A stretch of DNA of 32,000 nucleotides from positions 60,001 through 92,000 of the forward strand of contig NZ_CP013213.1 in NCBI RefSeq assembly GCF_001545095.1, in the 5' to 3' direction. The notes beneath the pieces were generated by a model. The model saw only the letters and a list, made by a program, of their open reading frames with translations. It was not told where the DNA came from and did no database searches. Of the stretch, positions 3,498-4,473 are shown piece by piece. The DNA is from Erysipelothrix larvae. Lineage in GTDB: Bacteria; Bacillota_I; Bacilli_A; Erysipelotrichales; Erysipelotrichaceae. Made by a program: the position numbers and the translations under genes. The stretch's first letter is position 1; each line of letters begins with the position of its first letter.

Positions 3498-4096
3498 CGA
3501 TAATGCTCCTTGTTTTTAGAGTGTAATTGATTCATAAATCCGTTATTATGATCGATCATAACAATTGTTTTTTGAGTAGATATCAAATGATTAATGCGTG
3601 TTTCAATTGCATGAATAGACTCAGTGTCCAAATTTTGAGTCAGTTCATCAAGAAAGAAAATACTGAGATTATCAAGAAATAATGGAAGGATGTTTAGTTT
3701 CTGTTTCATACCTGAAGACAAATCCCCAAATCTTTTCTGGCGTATCTCATGATAGTCAAGATTTAAAGAATCCATCACATGTATGAGCGTATCCATTGAT
3801 GTAGCGTACAAGGACTTCATAAGCCGTATACACGTATAAACACGTTCAGTATCGAAGAAGAAGGGTTGTGCTGGAATGTAACAGAGTTCTCTTTTATTGA
3901 AAGTAGATATTTGTGTTCCACGTGTGCATGTGTGGAGTTTAAGAAGTATCGAGATCAGGCAAGATTTACCTGATCCGTTCTCCCCAGAGATGCACGTTAA
4001 CGTTTGGTTTTGAATCGTAAGGGAAACATCTTTTAAGATAAGTGTTTCATTCAACTCCAGCGTTGCATCAATAAGTTCGAAATGGGGAACTACCAT
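3467..4096 (-). CDS. ABC-type ATP-binding protein (small, circular-bacteriocin-cluster type)
   Basis: Walker A GENGSGKSCL, signature LSSGMKQKL, Walker B IFFLDELTQNLD, H-loop MIDHN. The ATG at 4096 is embedded in the last codons of the precursor gene (TC ATG GTA G overlapping ..TCA TGG TAG). Confidence 0.85.
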   Translation of the reverse strand: MVVPHFELIDATLELNETLILKDVSLTIQNQTLTCISGENGSGKSCLISILLKLHTCTRGTQISTFNKRELCYIPAQPFFFDTERVYTCIRLMKSLYATSMDTLIHVMDSLNLDYHEIRQKRFGDLSSGMKQKLNILPLFLDNLSIFFLDELTQNLDTESIHAIETRINHLISTQKTIVMIDHNNGFMNQLHSKNKEHYRCENKTVIKL

Positions 4097-4347
4097 GAGA
4101 TTGCAGCAGTTTTCCCAAAGCGTTTAATCAAGGTCTTTCCTGATGCCATAACAATAGCCATGAGTGAAGCACCGGTTAAACACAAAGCAAGTAAAGTCCA
4201 TAACCCTGCTCCAGCAGCAATTGCATCTACAAGTTTACGTGCGGTGTATACATTGACACCAAGCATCCCTGTAATCTTAGAAGACCAAAAACATGAAGAC
4301 AAACACAGTGCAGCAAAATTAGCACAAACTCTGAGTGATTTACGCAT
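4090..4347 (-). CDS. Circular bacteriocin precursor (85 aa; predicted ~24-aa leader + ~61-aa cationic hydrophobic core)
   Basis: MRKSLRVCANFAALCLSSCFWSSK/ITGMLGVNVYTARKLVDAIAAGAGLWTLLALCLTGASLMAIVMASGKTLIKRFGKTAAISW. Start moved from the track's 4374 to 4347 because AAAGGAG lies 8 nt upstream of that ATG. The core resembles enterocin NKR-5-3B/amylocyclicin (GIS.YAAKKVIDII...; ...LIKKYGxKYAAAW), uberolysin (AKKVVDAIDKGAAAF) and the AS-48 C-terminus (..AVIAW), all recalled from memory. It is followed by the characteristic accessory genes. Confidence 0.7.
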   Translation of the reverse strand: MRKSLRVCANFAALCLSSCFWSSKITGMLGVNVYTARKLVDAIAAGAGLWTLLALCLTGASLMAIVMASGKTLIKRFGKTAAISW

Positions 4348-4473
4348 AAATAATTCTCCTTTCGATAACCACATTCTTAAATAAGCAAAAAGTTTTCGGA
4401 TTCCTTGGTTTGATGGTTTTACTATGAGAATAATTTAAGCTACAATAATGGTGAGAGATTAAGAGGAGGCACT

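Follow-up and report, generated by a model that had tools for sequence, protein, structure and literature searches.

What is encoded by the short minus-strand open reading frame (ORF) at positions 4090-4374 of a 32,000-nucleotide stretch from Erysipelothrix larvae (contig NZ_CP013213.1, positions 60,001 to 92,000 of the forward strand)? The whole stretch is called the window here, and all positions refer to it. The initial annotation, made from the letters alone, read this ORF as the precursor of a circular bacteriocin resembling enterocin NKR-5-3B and uberolysin, with a leader of 24 residues and a ring of 61 residues closed between I25 and W85. The sequence, the profile matches, the synteny and a fold model support this proposal, and the gene very probably encodes a group-i circular bacteriocin in the form of a precursor of 85 residues.

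Core peptide, reading frame and fold

The core was assigned to PF09221 (Bacteriocin_IId) over residues 27-85, with a score of 25.0 bits at a gathering threshold of 23.6. A phmmer search against all PDB sequences gave NKR-5-3B as the sole significant match (E=5.4e-6, residues 26-85 against 2-64), and acidocin B came next (E=0.009). Pairing with NKR-5-3B is gapless over the first 30 residues and again over the C-terminal tail, and a 3-residue deletion lies in the middle of the core. The gapless alignment given in the initial annotation is therefore right for the N-terminus, whereas the full length needs the mid-core gap. The other strings cited there, from uberolysin (AKKVVDAIDKGAAAF), from the tails of NKR-5-3B and amylocyclicin, and from AS-48 (...KRAVIAW), agree with the reference sequences. 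Using the reference rings of Vezina et al. 2020 (Suppl. 1), the global identity to the core was 38% for the amylocyclicin-like peptide of Staphylococcus kloosii, 34% for NKR-5-3B, 31% for both amylocyclicin and uberolysin, and 23% for AS-48.

The core aligns from the first to the last residue with experimentally defined mature rings. The K24/I25 boundary and W85 correspond exactly to the termini that are joined in NKR-5-3B, because the core profile of the clade described below matches NKR-5-3B with positions 1-61 against 1-64 (E=1.3e-15). The ligation site needs a hydrophobic N-terminal and a hydrophobic or aromatic C-terminal core residue (PMC7132975). The core ends are I25 and W85, and the relatives have I, L, V, A or M at the N-terminus and W, Y or F at the C-terminus. 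Circular bacteriocins have leaders of 2-48 residues and cores of 58-70 residues (PMC6131525, PMC8534725), a range into which 24 plus 61 residues fits. The counts given earlier for the core (61 residues at 4275-4093, six Lys/Arg, one Asp and one Cys) are correct; the basic residues are 4 Lys and 2 Arg, with a net charge of +5. The predicted ring has an isoelectric point of 10.2, a grand average of hydropathy (GRAVY) of 0.99, an average mass of 6263.55 Da and a monoisotopic mass of 6259.46 Da. It contains the polybasic patch KTLIKRFGK (K48, K52, R53 and K56 in ring numbering) and no cysteine pairs; a positive charge, an isoelectric point above 9, such a patch and the lack of Cys pairs are characteristic of group i (PMC7132975, PMC6131525).

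The ORF of 94 codons, which begins at ATG 4374-4372, is present as read from the sequence, and a second in-frame ATG at 4347-4345 gives a product of 85 residues. The Shine-Dalgarno sequence AAAGGAG is located within the 9-codon extension of the longer form, ahead of the second ATG. The 85-residue product is identical to the NCBI entry 'hypothetical protein AOC36_00310 [Erysipelothrix larvae]'; its UniRef name is 'Circularin A/uberolysin family', and a precomputed PF09221 assignment is present. In the nearest relative (P0002, on the metagenome contig L001; 46% identical) the precursor starts with TTG, and AAAGGAGG stands 8 nucleotides before it. The motif CGAAAGGAG(G) is common to both genes, in each case 8 nucleotides ahead of the start; moreover, the L001 precursor has an in-frame stop 8 codons upstream of its TTG, with no start codon between. 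The ribosome-binding site, the public annotation and the start arrangement of L001 support ATG 4347 as the likely start. The start proposed by the initial annotation is thus confirmed, together with the position of AAAGGAG; its remark that the start had been mis-called is true of the mechanically derived longest ORF only, and not of the public record, which already has 85 residues. The overlap of 7 nucleotides between the precursor stop and the ATPase start is also found in L001. A promoter scan of 4348-4473 on the minus strand found none, and the alignment of the upstream DNA with that of L001 revealed no conserved promoter. A second structural gene was rejected, as tblastn of 31 relatives matched only 4093-4347.

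The core was modelled by AlphaFold2 (AF2) with an 11-sequence core alignment. A bundle of four to five helices with adjacent termini had been expected; the model has five helices and its three top PDB matches are circular bacteriocins, at low confidence (predicted local distance difference test, pLDDT, 61.8; predicted template modelling score, pTM, 0.44). The helices span 2-5, 9-20, 25-34, 37-53 and 55-60 in linear numbering, and the first and the last would merge into one in a ring. A Foldseek search of 350,542 PDB chains gave four matches at E<=10, none of them below 0.001. The top match was NKR-5-3B, with template modelling (TM) scores of 0.78/0.75 over all 64 columns and a root-mean-square deviation of 3.1; the other two of the top three were AS-48 (TM 0.64) and carnocyclin A (TM 0.66). 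The termini of the model are probably close together, since it can be superposed on a covalently closed peptide along the entire length of the latter; this closeness is taken from the superposition rather than from coordinates.

Comparison with the known systems showed that NKR-5-3B is the best match both in sequence, end to end, and in fold. Both peptides have a net charge of +5, a C-terminal Trp and a LIK(K/R)(Y/F)GK patch, and the GRAVY of NKR-5-3B is 0.95 (PMC6131525). The two clusters also have in common an ATPase gene, a gene for a SpoIIM/DUF95 protein and, less certainly, one for a large membrane protein. However, the E. larvae ring has 61 rather than 64 residues, with the 3-residue deletion after helix 2; it begins with ITGMLGV, not LTANLGI, ends with GKTAAISW, not GAKYAAAW, and carries one Cys, and the SpoIIM homologue of its cluster is too divergent for Pfam. 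The gene order is also different: precursor, ATPase, 156-residue protein, SpoIIM and large protein in E. larvae, whereas the NKR-like loci L009 and L010 have precursor, large protein, SpoIIM, ATPase and membrane protein.

Uberolysin from Streptococcus uberis shares the PF09221 family, the motif A(K/R)K(V/L)VDAI..GA in helices 1-2 and the ...IW end with the E. larvae peptide; it differs in its 70-residue ring and in an alignment that needs two gaps. Its leader is short, with 6 residues. AS-48 from Enterococcus faecalis (PDB 1E68, 4RGD) has the saposin-like fold and an ...IAW tail, but it forms a 70-residue ring of five helices, and its sequence similarity alone is not significant (profile E=0.07-0.6). 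The accessory ABC transporter as-48EFGH (PMC6131525) parallels the MacB-type ATPase and permease of the E. larvae cluster.

The 61-residue clade, the leader and the cysteines

An exhaustive HMMER scan, which covered 1.84 billion cluster representatives, revealed 11 proteins at E<=1e-3. A follow-up profile search gave 26 proteins, all 26 of which carry PF09221 and several of which are named circular bacteriocins; nearly all relatives are metagenomic. Together with the E. larvae peptide, 17 of the relatives (P0002-P0008, P0010-P0012, P0014-P0019 and P0021) form a clade of 18, one member of which comes from a metagenome-assembled genome (MAG) labelled Bacilli bacterium. The clade cores have exactly 61 residues, except for P0019, which is broken off at a contig end. 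They start with x-x-x-MLG(V/I) and end with W, Y or F, and the E. larvae core is 38-52% identical to the others. The profile matches outside the clade are NKR-5-3B-like sequences of 63-64 residues. In the strict sense, the NKR-5-3B/amylocyclicin subfamily is marked by a 64-residue ring and the tail ...KKYG(K/A)KYAAAW, whereas the E. larvae peptide has KRFGKTAAISW. By sequence and gene order, the clade is a sister of the NKR-5-3B/amylocyclicin subfamily and not a member in the strict sense, because of the 61-residue ring, this tail, the identities of 31-38% and the different gene order. Other searches added no relatives: a word-indexed protein search with the precursor returned the precursor itself only, tblastn against plasmids gave no match, scans of genome contigs (with the single core, and with an alignment of P0001 and P0002) confirmed no locus, that of the source genome included, and contig look-ups by exact sequence with the precursor and the ATPase of the window had no result.

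The initial annotation had called the leader of about 24 residues with three cysteines unusual. The counts are right (Cys at positions 8, 15 and 19), but the length is typical of the group: the leader of NKR-5-3B has 23 residues (PMC6131525), and in the alignment the clade leaders are hydrophobic and mostly 19-24 residues long. The cysteines are not conserved. Three is the maximum among 31 sequences, and these leader cysteines are most likely incidental, a matter of chance in a hydrophobic segment, because the remaining leaders carry 0-2 cysteines, placed elsewhere, and that of the nearest relative, P0002, has none. At -1 the leader has K24; a charged residue there is common in circular bacteriocins (PMC13463998), and the relatives are highly variable at this position (K, Y, H, E, N, Q, F and S). 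At -2 the E. larvae leader has Ser23 and is the only one in the clade without Pro. The Ser23 codon, TCT at 4279-4281 on the minus strand, is one nucleotide away from CCT (Pro).

The lone ring Cys is C56 of the precursor (TGT at 4182-4180, minus strand). Only P0002 has Cys in the same column, where the other relatives have V or I, so this residue most likely serves as an ordinary hydrophobic residue of a helix. Two further relatives have Cys two columns away, and a lone ring Cys is thus found in three relatives. Circular bacteriocins 'typically lack cysteine' (PMC13646528); however, a single Cys occurs in 10 of 119 circular bacteriocin sequences, with no Cys pairs (PMC7132975). The core Cys that had been flagged as unusual is therefore uncommon, but not unprecedented.

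The operon and neighbouring genes

The features of the precursor gene and of the genes that follow it are collected in Table 1. The six operon genes all overlap (4090/4096, 3467/3497, 3027/3039, 2614/2617 and 911/930), which suggests translational coupling. The cassette of precursor, ATPase, two membrane proteins and large membrane protein is kept in L001, L002 and L007, with identities of 25-38%. The 209-residue ATPase shares 33-34% identity with the ATPases encoded directly after the precursor in these three loci. The 156-residue protein has a weak Yip1 match below the threshold and is 28% identical to the L001 protein at the same position. It is the sole candidate for an immunity gene in the operon.

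Table 1. Features of the probable circular bacteriocin locus in the window
Feature	Position	Strand	Evidence or remark
Leader peptide MRKSLRVCANFAALCLSSCFWSSK, 24 residues, hydrophobic	4276..4347	-	Alignment of relatives; boundary from the alignment of the core with mature NKR-5-3B
Core peptide I25-W85, 61 residues, predicted head-to-tail ring	4093..4275	-	PF09221, NKR-5-3B match, AF2/Foldseek
Shine-Dalgarno sequence AAAGGAG	4356..4362	-	8-nucleotide spacer (aattattt) before ATG 4347; sequence
Precursor stop codon TAG	4090..4092	-	Overlaps the ATG of the next gene (4096-4094); sequence
ABC-type ATPase, 209 residues (EnkB3/As-48D-like role)	3467..4096	-	PF00005, E=1.4e-17
Membrane protein, 156 residues, 4 predicted transmembrane helices	3027..3497	-	Hydropathy; candidate immunity protein or transport partner
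Divergent SpoIIM/DUF95-family membrane protein, 141 residues	2614..3039	-	hhalign
568-residue ORF: candidate large membrane protein of about 340 residues with multiple transmembrane helices, plus soluble domain of about 216 residues	911..2617	-	BLAST, transmembrane prediction
Second ABC ATPase, 227 residues, MacB/FtsE/LolD type	247..930	-	PF00005, E=3e-30; TIGR03608, 183 bits
N-terminus of hydrophobic FtsX-like permease ORF, extends past the window end	1..246	-	Position only (L007, L010)

A SpoIIM/DUF95 gene is present in all circular bacteriocin clusters (PMC6131525). Pfam and NCBIfam gave no match for the 141-residue protein, the 568-residue protein or the C-terminal domain of the latter. 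Profile comparison by hhalign matched the 141-residue family to the SpoIIM proteins of the NKR-like clusters L009 and L010 together with LcyD of leucocyclicin Q (probability 81%, E=1.2e-5, 140 columns), and in this alignment the motifs N, H..E and SA.(I/V)E coincide. With two SpoIIM sequences the match had been weak (E=0.024), and it became significant once LcyD was added; the controls with unrelated membrane proteins gave 0.28-0.86. One member of the 141-residue family matches PF01944 at E=0.0079, and a profile search with the family reached no PF01944 member. In public annotation the SpoIIM-like gene has 114 residues (P0035). The start that gives 141 residues seems more likely than this, because the alignment with the L001 homologue P0034 begins at residue 4 of the longer form.

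The 568-residue ORF has at least 8 predicted transmembrane helices and shows weak BLAST matches to proteins of 392 residues (L002, E=8e-4) and 367 residues (L007, E=9e-3). Its C-terminal part of about 216 residues had no match in Pfam, NCBIfam or, by tblastn, plasmids, and its hhalign comparison with YknX-like adaptors was not significant (0.18); by its position before the MacB-type ATPase, it may be an adaptor-like domain. The ORF looks like an in-frame fusion, and at the apparent joint (1573-1606) the sequence reads (L/M)RPLLIISLMLLSSC, which would be a textbook lipoprotein signal if TTG 1606 were an internal start. The second ATPase shares 42% identity with its counterpart in the YknX-ATPase-FtsX set of Enterococcus hirae (L010) and 37% with that of L007; in both loci an FtsX/MacB permease follows the ATPase. 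Positions 1-930 probably belong to an accessory transporter like as-48EFGH.

A divergent HAD hydrolase gene (4474-5334, plus strand) lies beside the operon, and its L001 counterpart is 61% identical. With this shared neighbour, the L001 cluster thus occupies the equivalent position in the chromosome of a related organism. Beyond the hydrolase is a protein of 176 residues with several transmembrane helices and no family match (5402-5932, minus strand). In the MAG 'Bacilli bacterium', a second gene set adjoins the circular bacteriocin cluster (L005, 2300-5618). It includes a secreted Gly/Tyr-rich peptide of 100 residues, membrane proteins of 394 and 173 residues, an ABC ATPase and an S26 signal peptidase, and is lactococcin-972-like by appearance.

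Alternative readings, proposed mechanism and significance

Several observations weigh against the assignment as a circular bacteriocin precursor. The peptide and its whole clade are known from sequence alone, and the AF2 model is of low confidence. The match to TIGR03651 (circ_ocin_uber) extends over the full length (residues 24-85 against model 2-73, E=4e-5), but its score of 23.9 bits is below the cutoff of 30.7. Within the operon, the 141-residue protein of the window has itself no direct Pfam match; the 156-residue protein resembles the proteins at the EnkB4 position only at P=0.011, and the large membrane protein resembles the NKR-type large proteins only at P=0.015. The reading frame of the latter also continues into an additional domain of no assigned family. 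The usual small immunity gene, which encodes a cationic, hydrophobic protein of 50-60 residues with two transmembrane helices, was not found in the operon, where the overlaps between the genes leave no room for it. Finally, the loss of the otherwise clade-invariant Pro at -2 could impair processing.

The lost Pro and the in-frame fusion would also be in keeping with a decaying or silent operon, in which the precursor would be made but inefficiently cleaved or cyclised, so that no active ring would result. In NKR-5-3B, leader truncations all block maturation and point mutations alter the yield (PMC6131525). Such decay is nevertheless unlikely here: the seven reading frames are all intact and tightly overlapping, nothing is lost from the ribosome-binding site or the core motifs, and leader residues generally tolerate change better than core residues (PMC13463998). 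The ring might also be a circular bacteriocin ring with other boundaries, for example with cleavage one or two residues away and a ring of 60-63 residues. The boundary is drawn from homology, the -1 residues of the relatives vary widely and the leader protease is not known (PMC8534725); however, there is only a small chance of such a shift, as the alignments with NKR-5-3B and amylocyclicin-like rings span exactly the first to the last residue, and the core counted from this junction comes to exactly 61 residues in each of the 18 members of the clade.

It is highly improbable that the leader is a lipoprotein signal, at which Lgt and LspA would act on L16-S17-S18-C19 and leave a lipid-anchored surface protein of 67 residues or a lipidated intermediate. 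The generic Gram-positive lipobox follows the pattern [LVI][ASTVI][GAS]C. The leader does contain a positively charged n-region (MRKSLR), 8 uncharged residues and then L-S-S-C. However, Cys at position 19 is found in none of the 30 relatives, and the nearest one lacks leader Cys altogether. What is conserved is the junction before x-x-x-MLG rather than a lipobox; over its whole length the core matches a known ring, the N-terminus of which corresponds to I25, and the operon encodes machinery of the cyclisation type. The cysteines could also be functional. The LSSC segment could yield a transient lipid-anchored intermediate that keeps the precursor at the membrane machinery; the thiol of C56 could mediate covalent dimerisation or redox-dependent activity; and the missing Pro at -2 could indicate a different route of leader removal. 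Even taken jointly, functional cysteines or such a separate route are regarded as improbable. To our knowledge, neither a lipid-anchored intermediate nor a thiol role in dimerisation or redox control has been described for circular bacteriocins.

With the circular bacteriocin precursor as the preferred reading, a mechanism can be proposed. The family membership of the core, the homology-based leader and core boundaries and the presence in the operon of the genes that would be expected come from the present analysis; the steps are drawn from the knowledge of the family reviewed in PMC6131525 and PMC13463998. The hydrophobic 24-residue leader would be cut off between K24 and I25, and the amino group of I25 would form an amide bond with the carboxyl group of W85 to close the 61-residue ring. 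The predicted ring junction W85-I25 would read ...TAAISW-ITGMLGVNVYTAR. The cationic ring (+5) would adopt a saposin-like fold of four to five helices. The SpoIIM/DUF95-like protein, the large membrane protein and the ATPase would be needed for maturation and export; self-immunity might be aided by the 156-residue membrane protein and the accessory MacB-type transporter. The released ring would insert into membranes and permeabilise them, killing competing Gram-positive bacteria. For circular bacteriocins in general, the chemistry by which the leader is cleaved and the ends are ligated is not settled; a DUF95-mediated model stands as a proposal only (PMC13463998).

The literature search gave no mention of an E. 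larvae bacteriocin or of this peptide. The peptide was not found in the text or supplements of two 2020 genome-mining surveys, nor in the text of a 2021 survey, and the two 2020 surveys contain no circular bacteriocin producer from Erysipelothrix. The family had already been assigned by automated annotation; the precursor is thus an uncharacterised addition to a well-known class, not a new kind of system, and the understanding of circular bacteriocins as a class is unchanged by it. The product would be a circular bacteriocin from Erysipelothrix, and E. larvae, which is cultured and has been sequenced in full, represents a small 61-residue clade whose other members are almost all metagenomic. 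Circular bacteriocins are prized as very stable antimicrobials, and the enzymology of their cleavage and ligation is unsettled. The natural ring Cys would provide a site for labelling, or one that intein-based synthesis could use. With its very divergent SpoIIM/DUF95 protein, permuted operon and conserved Pro-x junction, the clade is useful for comparison within the family.

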